Counted from the stretch's first letter, positions 1,725-32,134 are shown. The stretch is DNA of 64,000 bases from an uncultured Victivallales bacterium (GCA_964609395.1 CAZSRU010000003.1:19635-83634), one strand, 5' to 3'. Made by a program: numbers and translations. Notes: generated from the letters alone by a model not told the origin.

Positions 1725-1742
1725 CTTACGGAGGAGTAATAC

Positions 1743-2627
<885 letters not shown>

Positions 2628-2745: not shown

Positions 2746-2797
2746 ATCCGCTTTACGTTAAAAGTCCCGGTTGTGCCGAGAATTGCGGAGTGGATGG

Positions 2798-3322: not shown

Positions 3323-4377
3323 GGGCAGGGATGGAAACAAGGCCGCTTGATCTGCCGGTGGCCAGTGCGGCCGGCAAGGTGGTGGTCAGCAGTCGAATAC
3401 GCCTGGCGCGCAACCTGCACGGCAAGGCGTTCCCCGGCTGGGCCGGTGCGCGGGAGCGTCAACGCGTATTCGAGGCCCTGAGCCAGTTGCTGATGGATGA
3501 GGGGCAGCTTGTGAACCCGGTCCTCTTCCAGATTGATGCGCTTGATCCGCTCGAACGCGATATCCTGCGCGAGCGTCATCTGATCAGTGCGGAACTGGCG
3601 GCAGGGGGGGCCGGGACGGGTTGCGTGCATGACGACGCGACCGGCTTGGTGGCGATGATCAACGAGGAGGATCACCTGCGGTTGCAGGCGCTGCGTCCGG
3701 CGCTCGATCTGGAGGGTGCGTGGCAGGCGCTTACACGGCTGGAAGCGGGTCTGGAAAGGCATGTCGCGTATGCCTTCTCGCCCTCGCTGGGGTATCTGAC
3801 AGCCTGTCCCAGCAACGTGGGCACGGGGATGCGCGCGAGTGTGATGCTGCACCTGCCGGGACTGAAGCTGCTGGGTGAGGTCGATCAGGTGGTGCGCGGG
3901 CTCAACCGCATGGGGCTGGCCGTGCGTGGCGCGTTCGGCGAGGGATCGGAGGCGTCCGGTAGCCTGTTCCAGATCTCGAACCAGGCCACGCTGGGGGTCA
4001 GCGAGGACGGCACCCTGCAGCGGATCGCCGGAGTCGTGCAGACGCTGGTGTCGCTAGAAGGCCAGGCGCGTCAGCGCCTGCGTGAACTGCCGATGCCGCG
4101 ACTGCAGGATCATGTCGGCCGCATTTTCGGGGTGTTCTCGCATGCCGCGATGCTGACGGCCGGCGAGGCGATGGATATCCTCTCGGGGTTGATGCTGGGC
4201 ATCGAATCCGGTATGATAACCGGCACCGATGGCGGCAGCCTTGAGGACATGATGTGGACCGTGCAGCCCGGGCATCTTCAGCGGGAGGCTCGGCGGGCGC
4301 TTTCGGTGCTGGAGCGCGATGTGTTCCGGGCCGGCTATCTTCGCGGGGTTTTGAGTAACGTGCAACGAACAGGATAA
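3319..4377 (+). CDS. mcsB: Protein-arginine kinase McsB
   Basis: SSRIRLARN, NEEDHLR, LTACPSNVGTGMRASVMLHLP, FQISNQATLG. Located between mcsA and clpC. Confidence 0.95.
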   Translation: MRAGMETRPLDLPVASAAGKVVVSSRIRLARNLHGKAFPGWAGARERQRVFEALSQLLMDEGQLVNPVLFQIDALDPLERDILRERHLISAELAAGGAGTGCVHDDATGLVAMINEEDHLRLQALRPALDLEGAWQALTRLEAGLERHVAYAFSPSLGYLTACPSNVGTGMRASVMLHLPGLKLLGEVDQVVRGLNRMGLAVRGAFGEGSEASGSLFQISNQATLGVSEDGTLQRIAGVVQTLVSLEGQARQRLRELPMPRLQDHVGRIFGVFSHAAMLTAGEAMDILSGLMLGIESGMITGTDGGSLEDMMWTVQPGHLQREARRALSVLERDVFRAGYLRGVLSNVQRTG

Positions 4378-4379
4378 AC

Positions 4380-6854: not shown

Positions 6855-6862
6855 GAAAGACA

Positions 6863-8440
6863 GTGAAACAAAGCACCGATCTCAAGGGTGAATACGCCGA
6901 TTACCTGAGCGACGAATCCCGCCGTACGGGTTGCGCGGACGCGATCATGTTCGCGGAGTGCGAAGCCGATATCGTGGAAGTCCTGCGGCAGGCCGCGGAG
7001 GAGGGGACGCCGGTCACGGTCCAGAGCGGCTTGACCGGGATCACCGGCGGCGCGACGCCCGATGGTGGCTGTATACTCAATGTCAGCCGCATGTCCCGTG
7101 TCCTCGGCATGCGCCATGACCCGGCGGCGGATCGCTACTTCGTGCGGGTGCAGCCGGGATTCACGCTCAAGGCGCTGCACGAGGCCCTCGTGCACGGCGG
7201 CGACTTCGATACGGCGGGCTGGAACGTGGAGTCGCTGGATACGCTGGCGCGCTATCGTCAGGGCACTCCACACGTCTTCCCGCCGGATCTGACCGAGGCG
7301 GGGGCCTGTCTGGCTGGTGTGGTGGCCAATAACGGTTCCGGTGCCCGCACCTTCCGCTATGGCCCCGCGCGCCCGCATGTGTCCGCCCTGCGCGTGGTGC
7401 TGCCGGGAGGCGAGGTGCTGGCGCTCCATCGCGGGGACCATTTCGCACAGGGGCGTGAATTTCATTTTGAATCCGCATCAGGCCGCACATACAGTGGCCG
7501 CTTGCCGACCTACCACATGCCTACAGTCAAGAACGCGGCAGGCATCTATGCCGCCGATGACATGGACCTGATTGATTTGTTCATCGGCTCCGAGGGTGTG
7601 CTGGGCGTTTTTGCCGAACTCGAACTGGCACTGACCCCGCTACCGGCCGTCGCCTGGGGGATGACGGCCTTCCTGCCCTCCGAGGAGGCGGCTCTGACGC
7701 TGGTGGAGCGGGTGCGCGATGACCGGCAGGGGCATGTAGCCGCGATCGAGTTCTTCAGCGCGGAGGCACTGGACCTGCTGCGTGGGCAGCGGGCTGGCAA
7801 TCCGGCGTTTGCCGCGCTGCCGGAGCTGAAGCCGCATTGGCATACCGCTGTCTATGTCGAGTTGCACGGCGACACCGAAGCGGCGGTCGAGCAGGCGATG
7901 ACAGGTCTTTGCGAGGTCTTGGCCGATAGCGGCGGGGATGCCGATGACACATGGCTGGCCACCAGCGCGCGCGCGATCGAGACGTTCAAGGGCGTGCGCC
8001 ATGCGGTGCCCGAGGCGGTGAACCTGCTGATCGGCGAGCGCAAGCGGCAGTATCCGGAGTTGACCAAGCTGGGGACCGATCTGGCGGTACCGGATGCCTG
8101 CCTGCGCACGGTGATGCGGATGTACCATGACGACCTGCGCGCGGCGGGGCTCGAGTATGTGATCTTCGGTCATATCGGCAACAATCATCTGCATGTCAAC
8201 ATCCTGCCGGCGAACCCCGACGACTATCTGCGCGGCAAGGTGCTTTATCTCGACTGGGCGCGTCGTGTCGTCGCCATGGGCGGGACGGTCTCGGCCGAGC
8301 ACGGCATCGGCAAGCTCAAGACGGCGATGCTGGAGATCATGTACGGACCGGAAGCCATCGGGCAGATGCGCGCCGTCAAACGCGTGTTCGATCCACAGAT
8401 GCTGCTCAACCGCGGTACGCTTTTTCCGTATACCGCCTGA
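6863..8440 (+). CDS. FAD-linked oxidoreductase (GlcD/D-lactate dehydrogenase family)
   Basis: QSGLTGITGGATP, FIGSEGVLG, FGHIGNNHLHVNI, SAEHGIGKLK, DPQMLLNRG. Confidence 0.88.
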   Translation: MKQSTDLKGEYADYLSDESRRTGCADAIMFAECEADIVEVLRQAAEEGTPVTVQSGLTGITGGATPDGGCILNVSRMSRVLGMRHDPAADRYFVRVQPGFTLKALHEALVHGGDFDTAGWNVESLDTLARYRQGTPHVFPPDLTEAGACLAGVVANNGSGARTFRYGPARPHVSALRVVLPGGEVLALHRGDHFAQGREFHFESASGRTYSGRLPTYHMPTVKNAAGIYAADDMDLIDLFIGSEGVLGVFAELELALTPLPAVAWGMTAFLPSEEAALTLVERVRDDRQGHVAAIEFFSAEALDLLRGQRAGNPAFAALPELKPHWHTAVYVELHGDTEAAVEQAMTGLCEVLADSGGDADDTWLATSARAIETFKGVRHAVPEAVNLLIGERKRQYPELTKLGTDLAVPDACLRTVMRMYHDDLRAAGLEYVIFGHIGNNHLHVNILPANPDDYLRGKVLYLDWARRVVAMGGTVSAEHGIGKLKTAMLEIMYGPEAIGQMRAVKRVFDPQMLLNRGTLFPYTA

Positions 8441-8453
8441 ATAGGAGGGAACA

Positions 8454-9284
8454 ATGCCGGAACTGCCGGAAGTGGAAACCGTGGTCAGGGGGTTGCGCGA
8501 GGCGGGCGTGTGCGGGCACCGTATCCGCGGTGTGCGCGTGTCCTGGGAGCGGACGCTCTCCGGACTTTCCACGGCGGACTTTACCGCCGGTGTCCGCAAC
8601 CGCCGGATCGAGGCGATCGAGCGGCGGGCCAAATATATCGTCATCCGGCTGCAGTCGGCCTGCTGGCTGCTGGTTCACCTGCGCATGACCGGCAGCCTGA
8701 GTGTCAAGTCTGCCGAAGAACCGCGCGATGCCGCTGAGCGTGCCGCCCTGATCCTGGACGATGGCCGCGAGATCCGCTTCCGCGATACCCGCAAGTTCGG
8801 CCGCTGGATGCTGACCGATGCACCCGACGTGGTACTGGGGCGACTGGGACCGGAGCCGCTTTCTGATGCGTTCACGGCGGCGGTGTTGCGATCAGCCATG
8901 CAGTCGCACAACCGCATGCTCAAGCCCCTGCTGCTGGACCAGCACGTATTAGCCGGACTCGGTAACATCTATGTCGATGAGGCACTCTGGGATGCCCGGC
9001 TGCATCCCTGCCGCCTGTCGCGGTCGCTATCGGCGGCCGACTGCCGTCGCCTGCATGGGTCGATCCGCCGGGTGCTGCAACGCGGCGTGGACGGGATGGG
9101 CACGACCCTCGGGGATGGCATGACCAATTTCTACAGCGTGGCCGGACGGCGCGGCCGCAACCAGGATGCACTCAATGTCTTCCGTCGCCACGGTGAAGCC
9201 TGCCCCCGCTGCGAAGGCACCCTCGAGCGCATCACCGTCGCCCAGCGCAGCACCCACCTCTGCCCGTGCTGCCAGCAGCCATGA
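8454..9284 (+). CDS. mutM: Formamidopyrimidine-DNA glycosylase
   Basis: MPELPEVETV start, HLRMTG, DTRKFG, GLGNIYVDE, C-terminal Zn finger CPRC...CPCCQ. Confidence 0.97.
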   Translation: MPELPEVETVVRGLREAGVCGHRIRGVRVSWERTLSGLSTADFTAGVRNRRIEAIERRAKYIVIRLQSACWLLVHLRMTGSLSVKSAEEPRDAAERAALILDDGREIRFRDTRKFGRWMLTDAPDVVLGRLGPEPLSDAFTAAVLRSAMQSHNRMLKPLLLDQHVLAGLGNIYVDEALWDARLHPCRLSRSLSAADCRRLHGSIRRVLQRGVDGMGTTLGDGMTNFYSVAGRRGRNQDALNVFRRHGEACPRCEGTLERITVAQRSTHLCPCCQQP

Positions 9285-9291
9285 TTGGGGC

Positions 9292-9398
9292 CGAGGGAAT
9301 CGAGGGAATCGAAAAATTCGACGAGGGGACGTCATTCCCGGCGGCGTAGCCGCCTCGATGACAAAATCGATTCTCTCGATTCTTTTCGATTCCCTCGA
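9292..9398. repeat. Nested inverted repeat built of ~9-nt units (CGAGGGAAT) around an inner GGCGGC-GTA-GCCGCC hairpin
   Basis: Left arm 9292-9321 (cgagggaat x2, cgaaaaatt cga). Right arm 9367-9398 (tcgattctc tcgattcttt tcgattccc tcga). Inner gtcat..ggcggc gta gccgcc..atgac at 9331-9362. Lies between convergent mutM and parA. Confidence 0.8.
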
Positions 9399-9428
9399 TC
9401 AATTGCCGTCGCTGGCTCACCCCGCCTG

Positions 9429-10223
9429 CTATACCGCCACCGGGTGCTCGGCCAGCTCGCGGGCGATGACTTCCTTGGCCAGTTCGCGGTAGGCGATCGA
9501 GCCGGTGCAGTGCGGATCGTACTGGATTACCGGGCGTCCGAAGCTGGGGGCCTCGCTGAGACGGATGTTGCGCGGGATGACCGTCTTGTAGACCTTTTCG
9601 CCGAAGTGGCTCTTGACCTCCGCCACGACATCCGGCGAGAGGCGTGTGCGGGCATCGTACATCGTCATCACGATCCCCTGGATGTCGATCATCGGGTTGG
9701 CGCGGCCCTCGCGGAGCTGCTTGATGATATGGGCGATCACGCTCAAGCCCTCCAGCGCGTAGTATTCGCACTGGATCGGCAGCAGCAGGCTGTTGGCCGC
9801 CGTCAGGGCGTTCATGGTCAGCACGCCGAGCGAGGGCGGGCAGTCGATGATGATGAAATCGTAGCCGCCGCCGCGCACGAGCGGCGCGATGGCCATGTTC
9901 AACCCGTGCAGGTAGCCATCCATGCGGGCGACATCGATCTCGGCACCTGCCAAGTCCAGTTCCGAGGGGATGATGTCGACGTTCTCGGCGACGGTCTTCT
10001 GGACGAGCCCGTGGACGGCGCGCTCGCGCAGCAGCACGCGGTAGAGGCTGGTACCGGTCTGGCGGGGCAGGCCCAGCCCGCTGGTGGAGTTGGCCTGCGG
10101 GTCAAGGTCGATCACCAGGACCCGTTTCCCCAGCTCGCCGAGGCAGGCGGCCAGGTTGATGACGGTCGTGGTTTTGCCGACACCGCCTTTCTGGTTCGCG
10201 ACCGCTAGAATGCGTGTTGCCAT
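9429..10223 (-). CDS. parA: ParA/Soj family ATPase
   Basis: VANQKGGVGKTTT, IDLDPQANST, IIDCPPSLG, EYYALEGL, IPRNIRLSEAPSFG. Start taken at MATRIL (10223). Confidence 0.93.
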   Translation of the reverse strand: MATRILAVANQKGGVGKTTTVINLAACLGELGKRVLVIDLDPQANSTSGLGLPRQTGTSLYRVLLRERAVHGLVQKTVAENVDIIPSELDLAGAEIDVARMDGYLHGLNMAIAPLVRGGGYDFIIIDCPPSLGVLTMNALTAANSLLLPIQCEYYALEGLSVIAHIIKQLREGRANPMIDIQGIVMTMYDARTRLSPDVVAEVKSHFGEKVYKTVIPRNIRLSEAPSFGRPVIQYDPHCTGSIAYRELAKEVIARELAEHPVAV

Positions 10224-11827: not shown

Positions 11828-14323
11828 TCAGATGAATTTGATCCGCCGGGCGGCGAAGCAGAGCATGCGCAGCAGGATCACCCCGTGCGACCAGCGCGAG
11901 ATATTGGTCTCGCCGTAGCGTCGTTCGCGGTAGCGGATCGGCACTTCCACGATCTTGAGCCCCATGCGCGCGGCCCCGAAGATGAGATCGAAATCGCCGA
12001 ACGGGTCGAAGTCGCCGAAGACATGGCGGTAGCGCGCCAGTTTCTCGTAGTTCCTGCGCGTGAGCACCTTGGTGCCGCAGAGGGTGTCGCGGAACTGCTG
12101 TCCGAGCACGAAGGAGAAGGCGGCGGCGAAGAACTTGTTGCCGATGATGTTGCAGAAGCGCATGGCCTCCTTCTCCATGGGATAGACGAGCCGGCTGCCG
12201 TTGATGAATTCGCCCTTGCCGCCGCGGATGGCGTTGTAGAAGCGCGGTAGGTCTTCCGGCGGGACGGTCATGTCGGCGTCGAGGATCATCAGGATGTCTT
12301 TGGTCGCCATGGCAAACCCCTTGCGCACGGCGTCGCCCTTGCCCTTGCCCTCCTGCTGGCCGGTAAGAATGGTGCGCTCGCCCGCATACTTCTCCGCGAA
12401 GCGCTGGATCGCCCCCCAGGTGTCGTCCGACGAGCCGCCCTCGATGAAGATCAGCTCGTCATCTGGTCCCATCAGCGGCGTGCGCCGGATGATCTCCTCG
12501 ATGTGGCCTTCCTCGTTGCGGGCGGCAACGACCACCGAGACGCTCGGGCGCGCCGGCAGGGCCTCGGGGACCGGCATCGGGCGGACGATGGCGATGTTGA
12601 CGAGATTCAGGTGGCGGATGCCGGGCAGGGCGGAGAAAATGCGGTTGAAGAGCCACGCCAGTCCCGGCACAGGCAGGGGGAAGAGCACGCGGCTCTCGAG
12701 CCGCACGAGCTGGTAGTCGCAGATCAGGAGCATGTTGTCGAGATCCGCGCGGGTGATCCAGTTGTTCTCCGGCAGCTTGCTGCGCCAGCCGAGGGCTGTC
12801 GCCAGTTTCAGCAACGGACGCCAGAGGGTGCTGTAGTAGAGGATCGCCATGCGGGTCTCGGGGGTGGTGAGCGCGCGCAGCTTCTCGAGCAGGCCCTGGA
12901 TATCGCCGTCCTGCTGCAGCGTGCCGTTGAGCAGCACGTAGTCGGGCTTGAAGGCCGTGAGGGCCTCCAGCGTGTCCGCCGGGCGTTTGATGGCCAGGTA
13001 GTCCGGGTACTGGGCACCGATGATGCCGTTGGGCGGGTCGATCTCGGCCACGCGGTCCTCGGGTTGGATATAGAGCGACAGGTAGCGGTGCAGGAGTTTG
13101 TAGAGATAGGCCTTCATCCCGGATTCTCCCTGCGGGCGCTCGGGGACGGTGGCAATGAAGCGTTCCGCCAGTTGGTGGTAGCCCGTGTGTGCCAGCGTCT
13201 TGAGTTCGTCGACACGCGCGGTCCAGGCGGATCGGCGGGTGGTATCGTCCGCCTCCAGGCGGCGGACATGCCCGAGCAGCTTGTCCGGCGAGAAGTCGGC
13301 CAGTTCCAGGATGGATTCAGGGGTGCCCATGAGTTCCATGAAATGGCGCACCTTCGGGGCGTAGGCCAGGCCGATGCTGGGGACGTTCATGGCTGAGGCC
13401 AGTATCAGGGAATGCAGGCGCATCCCGGCGAAGTAGCGCATGCGTCCGGCGACACCCATCAGCTCCCCGGCGCTGTAGCGGTCGTTTCCCAGCACGGTCA
13501 CGCGCTCGCGGTGGCGCATGAAGGTCAGCACGGTCTGGGCATAGGCGACATCCATGATCTGGGTGAGGATCAGCACGATGCGGTAGTCGGTCTCTTCAAC
13601 GAGCTTGTCAATCGCTTCGGCCAGGTGGCGCGTGAAGGATTCGCGGTTGACCCCCTCGCCGTCGCGCAGCCACTGGTCGACATAGCTGTTGATATTGATC
13701 CCCAGCAGCTGGCTGTCGCTCTTGTCCAGCGCGTTCTCGGCCAGGATGGCATCGACTCGCGCAGGCGGGGCGGGCGGGGCGACAAAGGCGGCGTCGGCGA
13801 AGATCTCGATCCGCTCGGCGGGGATGCCGATGGATTCGAGCAGTCGCTTCGAGTCCGCCTCACGTACCCAGAGCGCGTCGCAGCGCTCGCAGACCAGGCG
13901 GGCGAGTCGCTTGCCGAGCGGGGAGTCCAGAGGGCCGATGCCGACCAGGAAGGCGATGACCGGTTTGCGCAGCAGTCGGGCATAGGGGATGACGACAGCC
14001 AGCAAAATCAGGAAGTTGAAGAGCGGGTTGAGCAGCTTGACGTCGAAGATGATCCCGTCGGTGATCAGCACCGCGTCGCAGCGGGCGATGGAACGCAGCG
14101 TGGTCCAGCCGATGAAGCGCAGGCTCAGGTTCCAGGGCATCATCGGCACCGGGCGGACCACGGCCGGGTCGAACCGGCTGGTGAGGTCGCTTGCGCACGG
14201 CACGGGGACCTCGAACGTGGTTCCAGGTGCCGTCGCCAGCACGTTGTGGACAATCGAGGAGAGAATGGCCGCATCACCGGCATTACGGCCCGAATTCGAC
14301 CCCAGTACGCATAGTTTAGCCAT
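11828..14323 (-). CDS. Fusion: polysaccharide pyruvyltransferase-family domain + degenerate methyltransferase-like domain + GT2 glycosyltransferase
   Basis: N-half: GRNAGDAAIL, VGIGPL, WVREADS, GMRLHSLILA, YAPKV. C-half: SVVVAARNEEG, GKGDAVRKG, ILDADMTVPPEDL, DTLCGTK, DFDLIFGA. Start taken at MAKLCVLG. Confidence 0.85.
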   Translation of the reverse strand: MAKLCVLGSNSGRNAGDAAILSSIVHNVLATAPGTTFEVPVPCASDLTSRFDPAVVRPVPMMPWNLSLRFIGWTTLRSIARCDAVLITDGIIFDVKLLNPLFNFLILLAVVIPYARLLRKPVIAFLVGIGPLDSPLGKRLARLVCERCDALWVREADSKRLLESIGIPAERIEIFADAAFVAPPAPPARVDAILAENALDKSDSQLLGININSYVDQWLRDGEGVNRESFTRHLAEAIDKLVEETDYRIVLILTQIMDVAYAQTVLTFMRHRERVTVLGNDRYSAGELMGVAGRMRYFAGMRLHSLILASAMNVPSIGLAYAPKVRHFMELMGTPESILELADFSPDKLLGHVRRLEADDTTRRSAWTARVDELKTLAHTGYHQLAERFIATVPERPQGESGMKAYLYKLLHRYLSLYIQPEDRVAEIDPPNGIIGAQYPDYLAIKRPADTLEALTAFKPDYVLLNGTLQQDGDIQGLLEKLRALTTPETRMAILYYSTLWRPLLKLATALGWRSKLPENNWITRADLDNMLLICDYQLVRLESRVLFPLPVPGLAWLFNRIFSALPGIRHLNLVNIAIVRPMPVPEALPARPSVSVVVAARNEEGHIEEIIRRTPLMGPDDELIFIEGGSSDDTWGAIQRFAEKYAGERTILTGQQEGKGKGDAVRKGFAMATKDILMILDADMTVPPEDLPRFYNAIRGGKGEFINGSRLVYPMEKEAMRFCNIIGNKFFAAAFSFVLGQQFRDTLCGTKVLTRRNYEKLARYRHVFGDFDPFGDFDLIFGAARMGLKIVEVPIRYRERRYGETNISRWSHGVILLRMLCFAARRIKFI

Positions 14324-14340
14324 CACACGCTCCGTTTCGT

Positions 14341-15339
14341 TTAAAGCAGGTTCTCGCTCTTGTACCACTGCGCCGTGCGCCGGATACCCTCCTCGAGGGA
14401 TACTACAGGCTGATAGCCGAGGATGCGTTTGGCCTTTGAGATGTCAAACGCCCGGCTCTTGGTGAAGAAGTCCACCCGTCGCCGGTAGATCGGGGGATTG
14501 ATCCCGAAGGGGATGCAGATACTCTCGACGATCGTTCCCAAGAATTGGACGGGCCAGGCCGGCACATGCAGGCGTGGCGGCGGAACGCCGAGGGTGGAGG
14601 CGATCATGGCGAACAGGGTGTTGAGCGGGACATACGACTCGCCCGCCACGATAAAGACATCGCCATCGGCCTCGCGGGTATCCATCGCGCGCATGAAGCC
14701 TTCCACCAGATCGTCGATGTAGACGGTATGGAACATCGGCTTGCCGCTGCCGAATACGACCAGCCGCCGCTTGGCGATCATGCGGAAGAGCTTGAGCAGC
14801 CGCAGGTCGCCGGGGCCGTAGATCGAGGCGGGGCGGACGACCGTGCCGCGGATTTTCCCGGATCGGAAAGCTTCCAGCGCCGCCTTCTCGCCTGCGACTT
14901 TGCTGCGCTGGTAGATGTCGCCCGGATTGTAGGGGGTCGTCTCGTCGGCCGGTGGATTCTCGATATGCCCGCAGACGCCGATCGTGCTGCAGTGGACGAT
15001 CTTCTCGACTCCCGCCCGGGCGGCGGCCTCGATCAGGTTGATCACGCCCTGGCGGTTGATGAGGTCATACTCGGCGTCCGGTGCATTGGCGCGCCGGAAC
15101 ATGGCGGCGATATTGAATACCGCCCCGCAGCCCGCGACCGCGCGGTCGCAATCCTCGCGGCTGCCGATATCCGACTCGATCACCTCGATCCCCGCCGCCG
15201 CGAGTTCCTGCGTGTCGCGGTTGCCGCCGGGGCGTATCGTGCCCCGGACGCGGAAGCCTTCCGCCGCCAGCCGCATGGCCAGGGCCTTGCCGGTGAAGCC
15301 TGCCGCCCCGGTCACGAGAACCGCCTTGTTCTTATCCAT
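14341..15339 (-). CDS. NAD-dependent epimerase/dehydratase (extended SDR)
   Basis: VLVTGAAGFTG, HCSTIGV, YQRSK (YxxxK), RPASIYGPGD. Start taken at MDKNKAV. Confidence 0.92.
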   Translation of the reverse strand: MDKNKAVLVTGAAGFTGKALAMRLAAEGFRVRGTIRPGGNRDTQELAAAGIEVIESDIGSREDCDRAVAGCGAVFNIAAMFRRANAPDAEYDLINRQGVINLIEAAARAGVEKIVHCSTIGVCGHIENPPADETTPYNPGDIYQRSKVAGEKAALEAFRSGKIRGTVVRPASIYGPGDLRLLKLFRMIAKRRLVVFGSGKPMFHTVYIDDLVEGFMRAMDTREADGDVFIVAGESYVPLNTLFAMIASTLGVPPPRLHVPAWPVQFLGTIVESICIPFGINPPIYRRRVDFFTKSRAFDISKAKRILGYQPVVSLEEGIRRTAQWYKSENLL

Positions 15340-15471: not shown

Positions 15472-16830
15472 ATGGCGAACGGAAACCATAATCACCTGAC
15501 AGAGGGGAACCTCTCGCGCGGTATCCTGCGGCTGGCGATCCCGATGCTGGTCAGCTCGCTGCTGCAGAATGCGCAGAGCCTGATCGACCTGTACTGGATC
15601 GGGCGGTTGGGTGCGGATGCGGTGGCGGCACTGGCGATCGGCGGCACGGTCCTGATGATGCTCTTTCCGCTGGTCATGGGAATGGCGGTCGGTACGGTGG
15701 CGATCGTGTCACGCCGCATCGGCGAGGGCGATGCGGTCGGCACCTCCTGCGCCGCTGGTCAGTCGCTGAGCGTGGCCATGGGGCTGGGGCTGGTCGCCGG
15801 TGTTGCCGGCTGGCTGTTTGCCGGCAAGTTCCCCGTCCTTCTAGGTGCCACGCCCGAGGTTGCAGTCCTGGCCGAGGAGTATCTGGAGATCCTGTTCCTG
15901 GGCAGTTTCACGGTCTTCGTCCTGTTCGTGGGCGGGCATTCGATCTTCCAGGCCGCGGGCAACACGGTGATCCCGATGGTCCTGATGATCGCCGCCAACG
16001 TGATCAACCTGGTGCTTGACCCGATCCTGATCTTCGGTCTCTGCGGGGCACCGGCCCTGGGTGTCCGGGGGGCGGCCATCGCCACGGTGATGTCCCAGGC
16101 CATAGCGGCTGGCGGGGCGCTGGTGCTGCTGCGCCGCGGGACCGGCGGTATCCGGCTGCACCCGCGGCACATGCTGCCCCGGCCGGCCATCGCCCTGAGC
16201 ATCCTGCGGATCGGCCTGCCGGGCACCGGCCAGATGCTGGCCCGCAGCCTGATGGCGCTGGTGCTGATGCGGATCGCCGCCACGGCGGGGACCGATGCGA
16301 TTGCCGCCTTCGGTGCAGGCAACCGTCTGCAGCAGTTGATTCTCATGCCGGCCTTCGCGCTCGGGAACGCGGCGGCCACCCTGGTCGGCCAGAACCTAGG
16401 TGCGGGACGCCCCGGCCGCGCGGCGCGCGGCGCGTGGATCGCCACGTGGATGGATGTTGCGCTGATGGTGCTCTTCGGCGGGCTCCTGGCACTCTTCGCG
16501 CCGCTGTTGATGGGGGTATTCACGGTCGATCCGGCTGTCATCACCATCGGGACGGACTTCCTGCGGATCACCTGCGGCTTCTACGTGTTCGTCGCTCCCT
16601 CGATCGTGCTGGGGCGCGCCTTCCAGGGGGCTGGCGATGCCCTCACTCCCATGATCCTGACTCTCGTCAGTCTCTGGGGTATCCAGGTTCCTCTGGCGAT
16701 CGTCCTCAGCCGCGTGATCGAACCCTCCACCCATGGCATCTGGTGGGCCATCGCGATCGCCGTCACCATCCACGGCATCCTCGTCACCCTCTGTTTCCAG
16801 CGCGGCCACTGGAAAAACCGCGTGATCTGA
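15472..16830 (+). CDS. MATE family transporter
   Basis: LAIPMLVSSLLQ, GRLGADAVAA, NLVLDPILIFG..GVRGAAIAT, GQNLGAG. About 12 hydrophobic helices. Confidence 0.92.
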   Translation: MANGNHNHLTEGNLSRGILRLAIPMLVSSLLQNAQSLIDLYWIGRLGADAVAALAIGGTVLMMLFPLVMGMAVGTVAIVSRRIGEGDAVGTSCAAGQSLSVAMGLGLVAGVAGWLFAGKFPVLLGATPEVAVLAEEYLEILFLGSFTVFVLFVGGHSIFQAAGNTVIPMVLMIAANVINLVLDPILIFGLCGAPALGVRGAAIATVMSQAIAAGGALVLLRRGTGGIRLHPRHMLPRPAIALSILRIGLPGTGQMLARSLMALVLMRIAATAGTDAIAAFGAGNRLQQLILMPAFALGNAAATLVGQNLGAGRPGRAARGAWIATWMDVALMVLFGGLLALFAPLLMGVFTVDPAVITIGTDFLRITCGFYVFVAPSIVLGRAFQGAGDALTPMILTLVSLWGIQVPLAIVLSRVIEPSTHGIWWAIAIAVTIHGILVTLCFQRGHWKNRVI

Positions 16831-16847: not shown

Positions 16848-16876
16848 TTGACGGGAGCAATCAAGTGCTGTAGATT
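16848..16876 (+). promoter_or_regulatory. Putative sigma70 promoter of the kinase-LRR gene (TTGACG-N17-TAGATT)
   Basis: -35 TTGACG at 16848-16853 and -10 TAGATT at 16871-16876, with a 17-nt spacer. Confidence 0.55.
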
Positions 16877-16983: not shown

Positions 16984-19900
16984 ATGCCGCCATTGAACAT
17001 TCCTGGATTTGAGATCCTCGAGAAACTCGGCGAAGGCGGGATGGCAACGGTCTGGAAGGCACACCAGCTCTCGCTGGATCGGGTTGTCGCCATCAAGGTG
17101 CTTTCCTCCCGCATGACGAATGATGCGGGGGACGTGCAGCGTTTCCAGGCGGAGGCGCAGCAAGCCGCGAAACTCAAGCACCCGGGTATCATCCAGGTCT
17201 ATGACGCCAACGTCCTCGACGGCGTTTACTATTTCATCATGGAGTACGTGGCTGGCTACACCGTCGGCGAGTGGGTCCGGCGCAAAGGGGTGCTCACGGA
17301 GGCGAATGCGCTGCTGGTGGCCGAGGCTCTGGCTGATGCCCTCGATTATGCCTGGCGGTCGGCAGGCATGATCCACTGCGACATCAAGCCCGATAATGTT
17401 ATGATTGATGGAGACGGTACCCTCAAGCTGGCCGATCTGGGGCTCTCCCGCTCCTTCCGCGGGAAAGACGGCGGTGAGTCGACCGGCGAGATCATGGGCA
17501 CCCCCGCCTATGTCTCGCCGGAGCAGGCCGTGGATGCGCCCGATCTGGATTGCCGCGCCGATATCTACTCGCTAGGTGCCATGCTTTACCATCTTGTGAC
17601 GGGCAAAATGCTCTTCGAAGGGGAATCCGACGAGCGGGTGCTGGAACTGCAGTTGAGCGGGACCATGGCGGATCCGGCGACGCTGAACCCGAAGCTTTCT
17701 CGCCCCATGTGCAGGCTGATCGAGAAGATGCTTTCGAAGGATAAGGTACATCGCCAGGCGGACTGGAGCGCGGTTCGCGCCGACCTGGCGTTGGTGCGTC
17801 GCGGGCGTCCGATTGTTCCGCCGCTGCCGCCGCCAGGGGCGAGCACGGTTGCCCGCGAGGCGCTATCCGAGCCCAGTACGCCCGTCCTTCCTGCCCATCG
17901 CCCCACGCAACGCCCTGGCCTACCCATCGGCCTATGGTTGGCTCTGGGGGTGGTGGGGCTGGCCATTGTTGCCTTTTTCCTCTTCCAGCTCTCATCCCAT
18001 AACCATTCTCCCGGGAGACCGCAGCAAGCCGTCAGCCACACCTCCCCCGAAGCCGTGAAACCGGCTGCACCGCAAGCCGAGCATGTGGCGGCCAAAGAGG
18101 CCTTCGCCAAGGCTGAGCAGCAGGCCCTGCGGCTGCCGTTGGCCTTCGATCAGAACATCGACCTGTTCCGCCGGGTGGTGGACATCGCCCCGCAAAGCCA
18201 GGCCGCCCGCCAGGCGCAAGCGCAAATCAGCCGCCTCGAAGCCTTGCGGCGCACCCGCTGCGGCGAGGTGCTCAACCAACTCCGGGACGCGGCGGCCCCC
18301 TTGCTGGAGACCGGACAATTCGAGCAGGCCTCGCAACAGTATGAAACCTATGCGGGCGAATTGGCGCGCGAGACGTTGGCGAACCGGCAGCGAATCGCCG
18401 ACGATCTGCGCCAGCGCGAAAAACAGGCGCAGGAGCTGCTCCAGCAGCAGGCCCGGCAGGCGCAAAAACAGTACGAGGCGCTGCTCGATGAGATCGTCAA
18501 GACCCTGACGTCCAAGGGGATCGCCGAGGCTGTCGCAACTACCACAATGGCCGAGGACGCCCCGCAGTTGAACTCGAAGAAGGAGGAACTCCATGCCTTG
18601 GTGCAGCTCCTCAATGGGGCCGCACAACTCAAGCGCCGCGTCATGGACTCATTCACCCCTTCTGTCGGCAAGGAAATCGATGTCAGTTTGAATAGCGGAA
18701 CCAAGCGGCTGCTGATCCGGCGCGTCCGGGATGGTGTGGTAGTTGGATCGCAAACCTCGAAAGTCGGACCAAGACAGATGACCGTCGATGTCTCGTTTGA
18801 ATACAAGGACCTCGCCAATAAGGAGATTCTCGCCCGCTTGGGCGCGGATGATGATCCGCAAGTGGCCTTGAAGAAGGGGCTCATGGCCTTGGAGGCCAAG
18901 GCGTACGAGCCCGCACGGCGCTTCTTCAGCAAGACCTCACCGCTGCTGGCCGAACGTCTGGTGGCCGTGGTGGATCAGGTGGAAGTATCCACCGTCGCCG
19001 AAGTTGCGAAAACGGCTTTTCTCAATCTGTGCGCCGGAGCCGGTTGGTCCGTCAATCTCGACGAGCGCACGGAATTTCTGGCAAGGCTCGAACAGGAACA
19101 GTTGCCGGCGACGAAAGGGCCGCAGATCCTGGCCATGGTCGAAAGCTATCGCGCTCAGCACGGCAACAGCAGCTTCGGACGCGAGGTAGCGCCGCTGCTG
19201 GCCGCCATGGAGCAGGCGGCGCAACGCGAGGCGCCCGAGCCCGAACCGCTCATGCCGGCAGCCCCCCCCCGTCCCGTGGTGGATGCCAAACCTGCCGACC
19301 CCCGTCTGATTCAGAACAGCCTGCTGCAATGCAATCCACAGCTTGGCGTCAGCCAGATCGAGATTCTTGCCAATGAGGAGGGGATCGTCCAGGATATCTC
19401 GATCATCTCCGAGGGGCTCGAGGATATCAGTCCCTTGGACGCGGTGCATACGCGCACCCTTGCCTGCAGTGCCGTTAGCAAGTACAACCGGCGTACGGAT
19501 GTGCCCAAGTGCAAGCTCGCCGATCTCTCCCCCCTGAAAGGCGCCGACGGCCTGGAATCGCTGTTTCTAGGACAGGCCCGCGTGCAGGATCTCACGCCGC
19601 TCAAGGGGCTCGCCCTGCGCCAGCTCACCATCCGCAGTTGCCCCGTTGCCGACATCAAAGCCCTGCGCGAACTCCCGTTCCTCGAAACGCTGGAGCTTCG
19701 CGACACCAATGTTCGCGACTTGACGCCCCTCGCCGCGCTGCCTCTTCTCTCCCTGGATATCAGTGCCACGACCATTACGGAACTCAACGTTCTAGCCCGC
19801 TTGCCCCTGCGACACCTGGACATCAGCGACACGCAAATCCTGAATCTGGGTGTTCTCACCGCCATGCCGCTGGAGCGACTGGACTTAAGCGGGACGCGCA

Positions 19901-20532
19901 TCTTTGATTTTTCGCCCCTGCGAAAACTCTCTTTACGCTCGCTGCGCCTCGATAATACACAATTCAAGGACATTTCCTTGATTCGTGCCATGCCCTTGGA
20001 ATACCTTTCGATGGCCAATACGAAAGTCAGCGACATCAGCAGCCTGAAGGGGGGCTCGCTCGTCAATCTCTCGCTGGCCAACTGCACGGTGAGCGACCTG
20101 TCCCCCCTCGCTGGCATGAAACTTAAAGAACTGAATGTCAGTGGCAGTCGCGTCGAGGATGTTTCGGTCCTCGCCAATATGCCCCTTGCCGTGCTGAATC
20201 TTTCCGGCACGCGGGTCCGTGACATTTCCGCGCTGGCCAATATGCCCCTTGCCGTGCTGAATCTTTCCGGCACGCGGGTCCGTGACATTTCCACGCTGGC
20301 CAATATGCCCCTCGTCCGGCTGCAGATCAACAACACAGCCATTAGCGATTTGACTCCGTTGATCGGTTCCCCGATTGAGCATCTGGAGGTAAGGGGCGCC
20401 GAAATCCGCGATTGGACGCCGTTGGCACGCTTGCCATTGCGTTCCATCACCGTGGACGATAGCCACGGCACTGTCCGCCAGGTCCTGCGTCAAATCCCGA
20501 CCTTGAAAACGATCAACGGCGAACCGCTCTAA
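16984..20532 (+). CDS. Hanks-type Ser/Thr kinase - single TM - helical region - C-terminal leucine-rich repeats
   Basis: GEGGMATVWKA, VAIK, IHCDIKPDN, DLG, GTPAYVSPEQ. TM LPIGLWLALGVVGLAIVAFFLF. About 17 21-aa LRRs (LxxLxLxxTxVxDLxPL), ending LRQIPTLKTING. Confidence 0.92.
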   Translation: MPPLNIPGFEILEKLGEGGMATVWKAHQLSLDRVVAIKVLSSRMTNDAGDVQRFQAEAQQAAKLKHPGIIQVYDANVLDGVYYFIMEYVAGYTVGEWVRRKGVLTEANALLVAEALADALDYAWRSAGMIHCDIKPDNVMIDGDGTLKLADLGLSRSFRGKDGGESTGEIMGTPAYVSPEQAVDAPDLDCRADIYSLGAMLYHLVTGKMLFEGESDERVLELQLSGTMADPATLNPKLSRPMCRLIEKMLSKDKVHRQADWSAVRADLALVRRGRPIVPPLPPPGASTVAREALSEPSTPVLPAHRPTQRPGLPIGLWLALGVVGLAIVAFFLFQLSSHNHSPGRPQQAVSHTSPEAVKPAAPQAEHVAAKEAFAKAEQQALRLPLAFDQNIDLFRRVVDIAPQSQAARQAQAQISRLEALRRTRCGEVLNQLRDAAAPLLETGQFEQASQQYETYAGELARETLANRQRIADDLRQREKQAQELLQQQARQAQKQYEALLDEIVKTLTSKGIAEAVATTTMAEDAPQLNSKKEELHALVQLLNGAAQLKRRVMDSFTPSVGKEIDVSLNSGTKRLLIRRVRDGVVVGSQTSKVGPRQMTVDVSFEYKDLANKEILARLGADDDPQVALKKGLMALEAKAYEPARRFFSKTSPLLAERLVAVVDQVEVSTVAEVAKTAFLNLCAGAGWSVNLDERTEFLARLEQEQLPATKGPQILAMVESYRAQHGNSSFGREVAPLLAAMEQAAQREAPEPEPLMPAAPPRPVVDAKPADPRLIQNSLLQCNPQLGVSQIEILANEEGIVQDISIISEGLEDISPLDAVHTRTLACSAVSKYNRRTDVPKCKLADLSPLKGADGLESLFLGQARVQDLTPLKGLALRQLTIRSCPVADIKALRELPFLETLELRDTNVRDLTPLAALPLLSLDISATTITELNVLARLPLRHLDISDTQILNLGVLTAMPLERLDLSGTRIFDFSPLRKLSLRSLRLDNTQFKDISLIRAMPLEYLSMANTKVSDISSLKGGSLVNLSLANCTVSDLSPLAGMKLKELNVSGSRVEDVSVLANMPLAVLNLSGTRVRDISALANMPLAVLNLSGTRVRDISTLANMPLVRLQINNTAISDLTPLIGSPIEHLEVRGAEIRDWTPLARLPLRSITVDDSHGTVRQVLRQIPTLKTINGEPL
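20173..20310 (+). repeat. Near-perfect 63-bp tandem duplication (one 21-aa LRR unit, about 2.2 copies)
   Basis: GCCAATATGCCCCTTGCCGTGCTGAATCTTTCCGGCACGCGGGTCCGTGACATTTCC starts at 20173 and 20236, and GCCAATATGCCC starts again at 20299. Confidence 0.95.
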
Positions 20533-21767: not shown

Positions 21768-22973
21768 ATGATGAGCAAGATCATCTATATGGACAACAAC
21801 GCGACGACGTCCGTGGCGCCGGAAGCGTTCGAGGCGATGAGACCGTTCCTCGTCGACCAGTATTTCAATCCCAGCTCCATGTATGAAGCCGCGCGCGGGC
21901 CGGCTCATGCGATCGCGGCGGCGCGGGCGTCTATTGCCGCCTGCCTGGGCGGTGTCTCGCCCGACGAGATCGTCTTCACCGGCTGCGCGACGGAAAGCAA
22001 TAACATGGCGATCTTCGGCGCGATCCGGGCCAATCGGGGGCGGCGGCATATCATCACCACGGCGGTCGAGCATCCCTCGGTGCTGGAGGTTTGCCGCGAG
22101 GCGGCGCGCGAGGGCTGCGAGGTGACCTTTGTCGGGGTGAACCAGCAGGGCGAGATCGATACCACGGAATTCATCCGCGCGCTGCGCCCGGATACGCTGC
22201 TGGTCTCGGTGATGCATGCCAACAACGAGACAGGCGTGATCTTCCCGGTGGCGGATCTGGCACGGCTGACCAAGGAGACGGATCCGGCGATCCTCTTCCA
22301 TACCGATGCCACCCAGACGGTTGGCAAGCTGGATATCGATCTGAAAGGCGAGCTGTCGCAGGTGGACATGCTCGCGTTCTCGGGGCACAAGCTTCACGCC
22401 CCGAAAGGGGTGGGAGCCTTGTACCTGCGGCGCGGCACGGCCTGTCGGCCGTACTTGTGCGGCGGGCACCAGGAGCGCGGCCTGCGGGCCGGCACGGAGA
22501 ATGTCGGCCACATCGTCGCGCTGGCCAAGGCCTGCGAGCTGGCGTTGGACGCCCGGACCGACGAGACCCGCGTGGCGGCGCTGCGCGACCGGCTGCAGGC
22601 GGCGCTGTGCGAGCGTATCCCCTGGCTGGAGGTCAACGGGGCGGGGGCGCCGCGGCTGCCCAACACGCTGAACCTGGCGTGCCACAGTATCGAGGGCGAG
22701 GCCATCCTCTACCAGCTTGACGAATTCGGGATCTGCGCCTCGAGCGGCTCGGCCTGCACATCGGGCTCGCTGGACCCGTCACACGTGCTCAAGGCGATGA
22801 AGGTCCCCTTCACGGCGATGCACGGCTCGGTGCGTTTCAGTCTCAGCCGGTATACGACCGAGGCCGAAGTCGATACGCTGATCGAGGTGTTTCCGGGGAT
22901 CGTACAGCGGTTGCGGCGTCTGTCGCCGTACTGGGACGCGGCCGCCGGACGGCCACAGGAGGTCCGGTCATGA
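21768..22973 (+). CDS. nifS: Cysteine desulfurase (NifS/IscS type)
   Basis: IYMDNNATT, HTDATQ, FSGHKLHAPKG, SSGSACTSGS. This is the C-terminal part of ORF-track entry 20811..22973. Confidence 0.95.
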   Translation: MMSKIIYMDNNATTSVAPEAFEAMRPFLVDQYFNPSSMYEAARGPAHAIAAARASIAACLGGVSPDEIVFTGCATESNNMAIFGAIRANRGRRHIITTAVEHPSVLEVCREAAREGCEVTFVGVNQQGEIDTTEFIRALRPDTLLVSVMHANNETGVIFPVADLARLTKETDPAILFHTDATQTVGKLDIDLKGELSQVDMLAFSGHKLHAPKGVGALYLRRGTACRPYLCGGHQERGLRAGTENVGHIVALAKACELALDARTDETRVAALRDRLQAALCERIPWLEVNGAGAPRLPNTLNLACHSIEGEAILYQLDEFGICASSGSACTSGSLDPSHVLKAMKVPFTAMHGSVRFSLSRYTTEAEVDTLIEVFPGIVQRLRRLSPYWDAAAGRPQEVRS

Positions 22974-24784
22974 GCGACGGTGTCGGCAAGGTCGAGACCC
23001 GTGTGGCGCGGATCGCGTTGCCGCATGAAGGGTTTACGCTGGAGCGTGGCGGCGTGCTCCGTGAGATTGAGATCGCCTACGAGACTTATGGCGACCTGGC
23101 GGAGGACCGGCGCAATGTGATTTTCATCTGCACGGCGCTCTCCGGGGATGCGCATGCTGCCGGGTATCATACCGACCCCGAGAAGGATCCCGGCTGGTGG
23201 GATGCGATGATCGGCCCCGGGCGCGGGATCGATACGCGCTACTACCATGTCGTCTGCGCCAATATCCTCGGCGGTTGCAAGGGCACGACGGGGCCCCGCT
23301 CGAATGATCCGGCGACGGGGAGTCCCTATGGCGCGCGTTTCCCGGAAATGACGGTCGCGGACATAATCGAGACCCATTGCATGCTGCTCGGGCATCTCGG
23401 GATCACACATCTGGCGGCGGTCGTCGGTGGTTCGTTCGGGGGCATGCAGGTGCTGGAATGGGCCGTGCGGCGTCCGGCGATGATGGACCGCTGCGTGTGC
23501 ATCGCCACGGCCGCCTCGCTATCGGCTCAGGCGCTTGCTTTCGACAGCGTGGCACGCAACATGATCACATCCGATCCGGACTGGTGCGATGGCGATTACT
23601 ATGGCAGGGGGGCGGGGCCGGCCAAGGGCCTGGCGCAGGCGCGGCAGCTCGGGCACATCACCTACCTCTCGCAGGATATCATGAAAAGCCGTTTCGGGCG
23701 CGAGCGCCGCGTGGATGGCGGAGAAGAGGAGGGCGGCGTGGGTGCGCCTTCCGAGTTCCAGGTGTCCAGCTACCTGGAGTACCAGGGCATGAAGTTCGTC
23801 AACCGCTTCGATGCGAACTCCTATCTGCGTATCATGCGGGCCATGGATGACTTTGACCTGACGACCCGCTATCCGGGCGGCCTGGAGGAGGCCTTCGCAC
23901 CGGTGGCGGCCAAGATGCTGGTGGTGGCGGTCAGCAGCGACTGGCTGTTCCCGCCCGAACAGTCCAAGGAGATCGCCAACGCGCTGCTGCGGGCTGGCAA
24001 GGCGGTCTCGTACTGCCTGATCGAGGCTCCCTACGGGCATGATGCCTTTCTCGTCGACATCGATAACCTGGTCTCGGTCGTGCATGCCTTTTTGCCGTGG
24101 GTGGGTGCGGACAGGGCGGCCGGGAATGCCGATCCGGCGGGTGTCGCCGTGCCGTCTGTGGCGGCGACGGGGTTGGAGGTCAAGTTCGCGACGGGCGCGG
24201 AGCGCGAGGTGATCGCCCGCATGATCGCGCCTAAGGCGCGCGTCCTGGACATCGGCTGCGGGCATGGCGAGCTGCTGGCGCTGCTGGATGAGCGACGCGG
24301 GGCATCGGGGATCGGCGTGGATATCGATCTGCAACAGGTCGTGCAGGTGATCAACCGGGGTTACGACATCTTCCAGGAGGATATCGACGGGGGCCTGGCC
24401 ATGATCCCCGACGGGGCGTACGACTGCGCGATCCTCAGCGAGACCCTGCAGGTGGTCCAGCGTCCGCGCCTGGTGCTGAACGAGATGCTGCGGGTGGCGC
24501 GCGAGGGGATCGTCAGTTTCCCGAACTTCGGGAATTACGGCCTGATCTGGCAGTTGCTGCGTTCCGGGCGCATGCCCGTCGGCAAGGCGTTGCCGTTCCA
24601 GTGGTACAACACGCCGAACATCCATTTGTTCACCCTGCGCGATTTCGAGTTGCTGTGCCGCGAGGATTCGATCCGGATACTGGAGACCGTCGCCCTCAGC
24701 GACGCTCTCCTCGGGAAAGCCCTGCTGTCGCTGGGGTTGCGCAATCTCGGGGCGGACCGGGTACTGGTGCGGGTGAGTAGGTAA
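22970..24784 (+). CDS. metX: Homoserine O-acyltransferase MetX fused to MetW-type methyltransferase domain
   Basis: ICTALSGDAHAAG, WWDAMIGPG, GGSFGGMQ, SSDWLFPP, YGHDAFL; then VLDIGCGHG, SETLQ, VSFPNFG, WYNTPNIH (MetW). Confidence 0.92.
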   Translation: MSDGVGKVETRVARIALPHEGFTLERGGVLREIEIAYETYGDLAEDRRNVIFICTALSGDAHAAGYHTDPEKDPGWWDAMIGPGRGIDTRYYHVVCANILGGCKGTTGPRSNDPATGSPYGARFPEMTVADIIETHCMLLGHLGITHLAAVVGGSFGGMQVLEWAVRRPAMMDRCVCIATAASLSAQALAFDSVARNMITSDPDWCDGDYYGRGAGPAKGLAQARQLGHITYLSQDIMKSRFGRERRVDGGEEEGGVGAPSEFQVSSYLEYQGMKFVNRFDANSYLRIMRAMDDFDLTTRYPGGLEEAFAPVAAKMLVVAVSSDWLFPPEQSKEIANALLRAGKAVSYCLIEAPYGHDAFLVDIDNLVSVVHAFLPWVGADRAAGNADPAGVAVPSVAATGLEVKFATGAEREVIARMIAPKARVLDIGCGHGELLALLDERRGASGIGVDIDLQQVVQVINRGYDIFQEDIDGGLAMIPDGAYDCAILSETLQVVQRPRLVLNEMLRVAREGIVSFPNFGNYGLIWQLLRSGRMPVGKALPFQWYNTPNIHLFTLRDFELLCREDSIRILETVALSDALLGKALLSLGLRNLGADRVLVRVSR

Positions 24785-32076: not shown

Positions 32077-32134
32077 ATTAATATTGAAGAAAGTTGGGTC
32101 GAGAAGCGTTTATAGTTTAAAAGGGAGGAAGACT

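Follow-up and report, generated by a model that had tools for sequence, protein, structure and literature searches.

Introduction

Transmembrane receptor kinases of the Hanks type are well known in bacteria, and a ligand or an output is known for very few of their ectodomains. The closest described counterparts of the gene considered here are mycobacterial PknB and PknA, and Stk1 and StkP of Gram-positive bacteria, with which it shares an N-terminal cytoplasmic kinase, a single transmembrane (TM) helix and an extracytoplasmic sensor. The gene lies in a stretch of 64,000 nucleotides (hereafter the window) from an uncultured Victivallales bacterium (GCA_964609395.1, CAZSRU010000003.1:19635-83634) and encodes a receptor Ser/Thr kinase with leucine-rich repeats (LRRs), in whose catalytic loop the canonical His-Arg-Asp (HRD) is replaced by His-Cys-Asp (HCD). 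The original prediction, made from the sequence alone, had taken this pairing for an echo of plant immune receptor kinases and had proposed a convergent bacterial surveillance or contact-sensing receptor.

Another system with a similar layout is the H1 type VI secretion system (H1-T6SS) of Pseudomonas aeruginosa, in which PpkA, a transmembrane Hanks kinase with a periplasmic vWA sensor, stands beside an envelope-spanning machine with an FHA component (Fha1). The PpkA-Fha1 threonine-phosphorylation switch is alluded to in a study of the Myxococcus Tad-like Kil system, whose loci are rich in FHA, which has an FHA-fused ATPase and for which an upstream, contact-triggered signalling cascade was proposed; the main text of that paper does not contain the word 'kinase' and assigns no kinase to the Kil system (PMC8460266). 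FHA-fused CpaF ATPases are a recognised class (class III), and the FHA domain binds phospho-Thr (PMC12019362). In plants, the receptors XA21, FLS2 and EFR combine an extracytoplasmic LRR and one TM helix with a Ser/Thr kinase that has Cys before the catalytic Asp, and such non-RD kinases (without the Arg of HRD) generally need no phosphorylation of the activation loop (PMC2553837). Literature searches brought up no description of non-RD LRR kinases from bacteria or of any kinase from Kiritimatiellia.

Distribution of the HCD motif and of the LRRs

The open reading frame (ORF) has an ATG start and no internal stops, and the N-terminus of its 1182-aa product (MPPLNIPGFE) agrees with those of the orthologues. 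The translation of positions 17365-17460, GMIHCDIKPDNVMIDGDGTLKLADLGLSRSFR, contains HCD in place of HRD at exactly the coordinates given in the original prediction, together with Asp-Leu-Gly (DLG) in place of DFG, as had also been noted (Table 1).

Full-length homologues numbered at least 120 in a search over 5.8 billion proteins; they are 1030-1217 aa long and 33-98% identical, and every one carries Pkinase and LRR_4. Their named sources are metagenome bins of Kiritimatiellia, Verrucomicrobiota and Lentisphaerae, the nearest species genomes being labelled 'uncultured Victivallales' (phylum Lentisphaerota), and the family members are annotated only generically ('protein kinase', 'hypothetical protein'). 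HCD is present in 119 of the 120 homologues and DLG in every one. Kinases from outside the family were retrieved through peptide patterns that exclude the catalytic loop; in this small sample (n=7), taken from bins of Kiritimatiellae, Verrucomicrobia and Lentisphaerae, all seven have HRD. These are one kinase of L004 (Kiritimatiellae bin, HRD/DLG), two of L005 (Verrucomicrobia bin, HRD/DLG) and four of L013 and L016 (Lentisphaerae bins, HRD/DFG). A phylum-wide HCD background, which the original prediction had itself named as a refutation of its proposal, is ruled out by this sample, small as it is: HCD is not the lineage default.

The proposed pairing of HCD with LRRs is not supported. The kinase domain alone was searched exhaustively with HMMER against 1.84 billion cluster representatives, and the matches were scored by the kinase, middle (the ectodomain part next to the membrane) and LRR profiles of the family. 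This analysis revealed 138 HCD/DLG proteins with TM segment, middle domain and LRR (925-1217 aa), 32 that end after approximately profile position 305 of the middle domain (580-711 aa, most of them 655-690 aa) and 11 that end after the full middle domain (735-809 aa). At least 43 HCD representatives have the TM segment and the middle domain but no LRR. These short forms are real genes, since three of them (P0132, 669 aa; P0219, 755 aa; P0139, 748 aa) lie wholly within contigs, with downstream genes present. In the L024 genome, a 755-aa LRR-less form and a 1142-aa LRR form stand in tandem. All proteins with kinase and middle domain in the retrieved family loci are HCD, and a few HCD/DLG kinases occur without the middle domain (L035, L036, L041 and L046).

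HRD kinases with LRRs were found as well. P0112, the sole HRD member of the family, has an LRR ectodomain; an HRD/DFG kinase of L013 has an ectodomain with Laminin_G_3 and LRR_4; and the 1221-aa HRD/DFG protein of L034 (1497-5159), which has an N-terminal Zn_ribbon_8, carries the same middle domain and LRR as the HCD family and may represent the ancestral RD state of the kinase-middle-LRR architecture. L034, together with L035, L041 and L043, came from a metagenome scan that returned mostly short contigs and distant kinases and is unfit for linkage statistics. A tree of 127 kinase domains was calculated by neighbour joining, without support values. In it, a single clade unites the HCD proteins that have a middle domain; LRR and LRR-less forms are intermixed within this clade, its sister is the HRD/DLG kinase of L004, and L034 and L043 (HRD with a middle domain) fall outside it. 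Being common to the nearest HRD relatives, DLG appears to be an older and wider trait than HCD; 31 HRD/DLG kinases were counted.

Because HCD forms exist without LRRs and HRD kinases exist with them, HCD appears independent of the LRR: judged from these comparisons, the change from Arg to Cys is a trait of a kinase clade with a kinase-TM-middle-domain core, to which the LRR is an optional distal module. With high confidence, the product of the window gene is a receptor-type kinase that is active and whose LRR lies in the periplasm, and HCD marks its clade whether or not an LRR is present.

The top matches of the kinase search also included the giant proteins P0121, P0122, P0124 and P0137 (approximately 2450-2600 aa), with 4-6 kinase stretches each. 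In P0123 and P0129, HCD+DFG and HRD+DFG kinase domains occur within one chain.

Kinase domain

The kinase domain is matched by Pfam Pkinase (PF00069) with 162.5 bits (cutoff 31.7, E 1.6e-47) and was modelled by AlphaFold2 (AF2) as a bilobal kinase fold, with a predicted local distance difference test (pLDDT) score of approximately 90-98 over aa 1-275. Its best sequence matches in the PDB are the bacterial kinases PknB (E 8e-45), PknA, Stk1, StkP and PknE, and the best fold matches found with Foldseek are PknB (TM-score 0.85, 33-35% identity) and PknA; the best 60 sequence matches and the best 50 fold matches include neither a plant receptor-like kinase (RLK) nor an IRAK. Unlike PknB, Stk1 and StkP, the window protein has no PASTA repeats (no Pfam match on the ectodomain at E up to 10), has HCD, has an acidic activation loop without the Thr pair (by hand alignment) and has an ectodomain composed of an apparently novel helical/beta domain and LRRs. 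The NCBIfam Stk1/PknB PASTA equivalog (NF033483) reaches 268.3 bits against a cutoff of 450, and only aa 9-276 are aligned. The mycobacterial PknG, a soluble protein with rubredoxin and TPR domains, is unrelated in architecture to the window kinase. It is a described bacterial non-RD Hanks kinase (PMC4238996).

The GEGGMA Gly-rich loop, K38, E57, D133, N138, D151 and SPE178-180 are all present in the window kinase, and in an alignment of 90 sequences K38, E57, H131, C132, D133, K135, N138, D151, T173, E180, D193 and R257 are invariant. Since the catalytic residues are all kept in this way, the kinase is predicted to be active. C132 is the sole invariant Cys of the family; a disulfide partner was sought, and the family alignment holds no second invariant Cys. 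The position is strictly Cys, whereas plant non-RD kinases tolerate C or G, which hints, speculatively, at a role of C132 beyond the mere absence of Arg. In the activation loop, positions 168 and 169 are Asp or Glu in 60 and 76 of the 90 sequences, respectively, T173 is invariant, and no conserved Ser/Thr occupies the positions matched by hand alignment to PknB T171/T173.

Within the protein, conservation is highest in the kinase (mean column identity 0.71). Ratios of nonsynonymous to synonymous substitution (dN/dS) were computed by domain against orthologues of 87% and 77% identity: the kinase has 0.09-0.15, the middle domain 0.29-0.34 and the LRRs 0.32-0.36, with 0.28-0.30 overall. Purifying selection acts on every domain, and the gene is functional. 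Diversifying selection on the LRRs was considered and rejected, their values being similar to those of the middle domain.

Topology and ectodomain

The AF2 model of the full protein, obtained with 90 homologues as input, has a mean pLDDT of 88.5 and contains, with confidence, every domain noted in the original prediction, which had called for such modelling. The order is kinase (aa 1-275), disordered linker, TM helix (aa 318-335), disordered stretch, middle domain, Pro-rich linker and LRR (Table 1). At E <=0.1, Pfam returned kinase-type and LRR-type families on the whole protein, plus one weak chance match. An exact-sequence look-up of the 1182-aa protein gave no match, owing to an extra LRR unit (see below).

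The predicted Pro-rich linker and single TM helix (expected at about 17925-17990) were both found. The helix is the only strong hydrophobic segment of the protein, there is none at the N-terminus and no signal peptide, and a single TM segment was seen in 118 of the 120 homologues (median start aa 315). This supports the proposed orientation: the protein is very likely single-pass, with a cytoplasmic kinase and periplasmic LRRs. The domain order, which had been called inverted, is indeed kinase, TM, ectodomain and differs in this from plant LRR receptor kinases, in which a signal peptide and an N-terminal LRR ectodomain come before the TM helix and a C-terminal kinase, and to whose RLK/Pelle-IRAK group the kinase does not belong; it is, nevertheless, the order usually seen in PknB and other bacterial receptor kinases.

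What had been described as a long helical region corresponds to the middle domain. The helices are real (aa 364-555 and 612-747) but are interrupted by a four-strand beta insert. Folded alone, this domain of approximately 385 aa gave a pLDDT of 95.5 and a pTM of 0.82. Searches of it with Pfam (E up to 10) and with phmmer in the PDB yielded only noise, and Foldseek against the PDB gave no significant structural neighbour (best E 0.09, TM <0.2); the beta insert has a weak local likeness to small Sm/SH3-like barrels (Foldseek E >1). As modelled, the middle domain is a new ectodomain fold with no PDB relative by sequence or structure.

LRR_4 matches the whole protein with 89 bits (cutoff 27; 89-104 bits across searches) and the C-terminal part alone at E 3.5e-30 in 7 stretches. 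The repeats follow the consensus LxxLxLxxTxVxDLxPLxxxP with a period of 21-22 aa, and the AF2 solenoid (pLDDT >90) comprises 16 LRR strands and one low-confidence unit at aa 1088-1106, in line with the 'about 17' repeats counted previously. The nearest solved LRRs in the PDB are those of the Chlorobium tepidum Roco protein (E 1.7e-30) and of InlA (E 1.4e-29), and internalin NCBIfam models match the LRR part at E 1e-25, below their full-length cutoffs. The 21-22-aa repeat, the conserved Asp/Asn and the 'LxPL' connector are common to the window protein, the Listeria internalins and the Roco LRR; however, internalins are secreted or wall-anchored adhesins and the Roco LRR is cytoplasmic and joined to Roc-COR, whereas the window LRR is the distal ectodomain of a kinase. 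Membership in Roco/LRRK was looked for, and no Roc GTPase or COR family was found in Pfam at E <=0.1. By its sequence, the LRR is of the internalin/Roco class (SDS22-like) with a 21-aa period. In the LRR class specific to plants, the period is 24 aa, unlike the window LRR with its 63-nt unit and strands 21 aa apart.

One LRR unit (in the stretch of aa 1088-1106) is duplicated in tandem; the duplication is recent and near-perfect. The JGI contig L111 (sample 3300020048, Ga0207193_1000319), which is 99.97-99.99% identical to the window over 23 kb, has exactly one 63-nt LRR unit fewer (its repeat region is 13187-13276) and encodes 1161 aa instead of 1182 aa. The difference is either strain-level variation in LRR copy number or assembly collapse/expansion of a near-perfect repeat.

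Table 1 Features of the window kinase gene and linked genes in the loci of its relatives
Sequence	Feature	Position	Strand	Details
Window	Sigma-70-like promoter candidate, TTGACG-17-TAGATT	16848..16876	+	9/12 consensus matches, in 153-nt gap
Window	Coding sequence, stop codon included	16984..20532	+	Complete, 1182 aa, receptor Ser/Thr kinase
Window	Hanks-type kinase domain	17008..17757	+	Pfam aa 9-258; folded domain aa 1-275
Window	Catalytic loop H131-C132-D133, non-RD	17374..17382	+	aa 131-133
Window	D151-L152-G153 replacing DFG	17434..17442	+	aa 151-153
Window	Activation segment	17443..17523	+	aa 154-180; tip disordered, pLDDT <50 at aa 157-166
Window	Pro-rich juxtamembrane linker, disordered	17809..17916	+	aa 276-311; pLDDT <50 at aa 295-319
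Window	Single TM helix	17917..17991	+	aa 312-336; Kyte-Doolittle 2.6; AF2 helix 318-335
Window	Periplasmic middle domain (putative)	18073..19224	+	aa 364-747; long helices around small beta insert
Window	Four-strand beta insert in middle domain	18673..18798	+	aa 564-605, AF2
Window	Second Pro-rich disordered linker, middle domain to LRR	19228..19284	+	aa 749-767; pLDDT <50
Window	LRR solenoid	19300..20529	+	aa 773-1182; N-terminal cap helix and ~17 repeats of 21-22 aa
Window	Near-perfect tandem duplication of 63-nt (21-aa) LRR unit	20173..20312	+	2.2 copies, 98% matches
L003	Cys-rich partner gene	8967-9857		
L020	Cys-rich partner gene	8952-10004		
L024	Cys-rich partner gene	6154-7299		
L025	Cys-rich partner gene	8775-10004		
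L028	Cys-rich partner gene	8897-9994		
L109	Cys-rich partner gene	8824-9993		
L003	Tad/Flp operon	1586-8321		
L020	Tad/Flp operon	486-8662		
L025	Tad/Flp operon	226-8456		
L028	Tad/Flp operon	291-8472		
L109	Tad/Flp operon	1-8367		

Tad/Flp loci of the relatives

In 6 of 9 lineages (L003, 64% identical, L020, L024, L025, L028 and L109), the kinase gene is accompanied by the gene of a Cys-rich partner and by a Tad/Flp operon. The partner gene, whose product has approximately 300-410 aa, lies directly upstream of the kinase, with a 4-nt overlap in three loci and a gap of 2-7 nt in three. The partner contains 26-32 Cys, 11-13 CxxC motifs and a zinc-ribbon-like CPxCGYE...CxHC motif, ahead of which the five full-length copies have an N-terminal hydrophobic segment; it gives a weak DnaJ_CXXCXGXG match and belongs to no recognised family. 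In L035 (8897-11149), a Cys-rich partner and an HCD/DLG kinase (aa 376-635) occupy one 751-aa stop-to-stop frame; either the two are naturally fused or two separate genes simply share a frame.

The flp/tad operon is divergent from the partner-kinase pair in the six linked lineages. It encodes a Flp pilin, RcpC, TadB/C, a CpaF ATPase that carries FHA at its N-terminus (FHA E 1e-15, T2SSE E 6e-65) and an unannotated protein of approximately 480 aa with a weak Tad match in one locus only; neither secretin nor TadD is annotated in the parts of these operons that were covered. Apart from the L024 tandem pair there is one family member per locus, and none of the flanks of the family loci holds an additional kinase.

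Among described systems, the Kil apparatus and class III CpaF come closest to this gene content, the relatives' FHA-CpaF resembling KilF. Unlike Kil, the loci of these bacteria of the Planctomycetes-Verrucomicrobia-Chlamydiae (PVC) group add the Cys-rich partner and the HCD kinase, and they do so in the relatives only, not in the window. The layout of a kinase beside an FHA-containing machine, known from PpkA-Fha1, is likewise similar in the six Tad-linked lineages, the window copy being unlinked; unlike PpkA-Fha1, the machine of the relatives is a Tad/Flp pilus and not a T6SS, FHA is fused to the motor ATPase, and sensing falls to the middle domain, alone or together with LRRs, in place of vWA. 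No PppA-type phosphatase was seen near the kinase.

From this arrangement, the ancestral role of the HCD kinase module was probably the control of a Tad-type pilus via FHA-CpaF. That the family today controls Tad pili through FHA-CpaF can be put forward only tentatively, and that the window's own copy does so is doubtful; the latter has lost the physical Tad linkage, and may act in trans or on other targets. The contact-sensing idea of the original prediction gains some indirect support from the Tad/FHA-CpaF linkage of the relatives.

Genomic context of the window copy

In the window, the kinase gene is preceded by a MatE gene (153-nt gap) and, on the opposite strand, by polysaccharide genes, and is followed by nifU, nifS, a metX-metW fusion and, further on, yidC. 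The envelope and housekeeping neighbours comprise a polysaccharide pyruvyl-transferase/GT2 protein, an epimerase, MatE and YidC. The promoter candidate in the 153-nt gap suggests that the kinase gene is transcribed on its own; the scan gave 2 sites versus 1.0 expected by chance and is weak evidence. The synteny of the window is kept in L111, and L026 (87% protein identity) has the same MatE upstream and nifU, nifS and metX-metW downstream. No second kinase was found in the 64-kb window with the family kinase profile against all six-frame ORFs.

A MatE gene lies 2-3 genes from the kinase in two Tad-unlinked lineages (window 15472-16830; L017 14951-16300 and L110 7344-8671), and a peptidyl-prolyl isomerase gene (cyclophilin or FKBP) is convergent just downstream of the kinase in L017, L110 and L023; both recurrences may be coincidental. 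Elsewhere in the window, the gene of a ClpC-type AAA+ chaperone is directly preceded by that of a protein arginine kinase of the McsB type (ATP:guanido phosphotransferase; 3319-6854 for the pair, +). The McsB-ClpC pairing is best known from Firmicutes, and the gene pair occurs here in a bacterium of the PVC group. Other observations are a fusion of polysaccharide pyruvyl-transferase and GT2 glycosyltransferase (11828-14368, -, 846 aa), a fusion of the MetX homoserine acetyltransferase and MetW (22970-24784, +, 604 aa), two adjacent large ORFs with no Pfam match (29938-32076 and 32084-38494, +, 712 aa and 2136 aa) and a subtilase (Peptidase_S8) of 1393 aa that has an InhA-like MAM domain at its C-terminus (57019-61200, +).

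Proposed function and alternative explanations

We consider it reasonably probable that the protein is an inner-membrane, single-pass Hanks receptor Ser/Thr kinase of an HCD clade of Kiritimatiellia, Verrucomicrobiota and Lentisphaerota, acting by the following mechanism. The ectodomain would bind a ligand of the periplasm or envelope, which is most likely proteinaceous, and occupancy by the ligand would alter the oligomeric or allosteric state of the kinase. Since Cys replaces the Arg that normally reads the phosphorylated activation loop, and acidic residues stand at the hand-aligned phospho-Thr positions of PknB, kinase activity is expected to be independent of activation-loop phosphorylation. 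The kinase would then phosphorylate Thr residues of proteins in the cytoplasm, and FHA domains would read these marks. The window copy, which bears the LRR, has left the Tad locus; it lies between MatE and nifU/nifS and has its own promoter-like site.

Several points weigh against this explanation. Its support is confined to sequences and structure models. The positive-inside bias is weak (2.9 versus 2.3 Lys and Arg flanking the TM helix, with the N-side greater in 63 of 120 homologues), so the topology rests mainly on the kinase's need of cytoplasmic ATP. The L027 and L017/L110 lineages do not have the partner/Tad arrangement, and in the window neither FHA, PP2C, Tad nor the Cys-rich partner was found (Pfam on approximately 30 neighbouring genes; tblastn with CpaF, Flp, RcpC and the partner). 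Gene adjacency alone is no proof that the kinase acts on the pilus.

A convergent bacterial analogue of plant pattern-recognition receptors, in which the non-RD loop would be functionally coupled to LRR surveillance of foreign or contact-derived molecules, is very unlikely. It has in its favour that Cys before the catalytic Asp and an extracytoplasmic LRR coincide as they do in XA21, FLS2 and EFR (PMC2553837), and that HCD is strictly conserved and not the default in other kinases of these phyla. However, HCD follows the clade: it is found equally in the 43 close relatives without LRR, while HRD kinases carry the same or other LRR ectodomains (L034, L013, P0112), and this distribution rules out the analogy as a functional coupling. 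Moreover, the kinase is PknB-like and not RLK/Pelle, the LRRs are of the internalin/Roco type with a 21-aa period and are under purifying selection (dN/dS 0.32-0.36), and there is no local expansion, with one member per locus except for the L024 pair. Still less credence can be given to a dead pseudokinase or scaffold, in which HCD and DLG would abolish phosphotransfer and the protein would merely anchor an adhesin-like LRR module in the envelope. Two canonical motifs are altered (HRD to HCD and DFG to DLG) and the AF2 model shows a disordered activation-loop tip; yet K38, E57, D133, K135, N138 and D151 are invariant across the 90 aligned members, and no part of the protein is better conserved than the kinase (mean column identity 0.71, dN/dS ~0.1). 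Non-RD and DLG kinases are, besides, active in other families, such as Wee1 and the TGF-beta receptors (DLG) and DYRK (HCD).

It is also rather improbable that the protein is a housekeeping regulator of envelope or growth, analogous to PknB/StkP, which senses the envelope or wall through a helical and LRR ectodomain in place of PASTA and has no tie to a pilus. NCBIfam and the PDB do both give PknB, Stk1 and StkP as the best matches, the family is widespread and each locus except L024 has a single member, the copy in the window sits among housekeeping and envelope genes, and three lineages have no Tad linkage. On the other side, the PknB_PASTA equivalog gives 268 versus 450 bits and no PASTA domain is present, no conserved division or cell-wall gene cluster lies beside the family, and its most recurrent neighbours are the Cys-rich partner and the Tad genes. 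A more far-reaching proposal is a hitherto undescribed, PVC-specific sensory module (Cys-rich CxxC-repeat partner, non-RD kinase, new helical/beta ectodomain and optional LRR) that would gate a Tad/Kil-like pilus via phospho-Thr and FHA-CpaF. In such a module, the invariant Cys would be a regulatory switch (e.g. redox- or partner-controlled) replacing activation-loop phosphorylation, and the window copy would still control such a machine in trans or would have been re-deployed. Taken as a whole, this proposal is unlikely.

Significance

The case indicates that a non-RD kinase and an LRR within one protein are by themselves no sign of a pattern-recognition receptor, and that an attractive analogy can mislead. 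Transmembrane Hanks receptor kinases of bacteria are a known class, in which this family is notable for the invariant HCD, the new ectodomain fold and the linkage of the relatives to Tad, FHA and the Cys-rich partner. If the PVC-specific module described above were real, the HCD kinase would be the missing upstream kinase of the FHA-fused Tad ATPases. The family offers a testable route to the signal that reaches FHA-fused CpaF/KilF ATPases and to the regulation of bacterial non-RD kinases.

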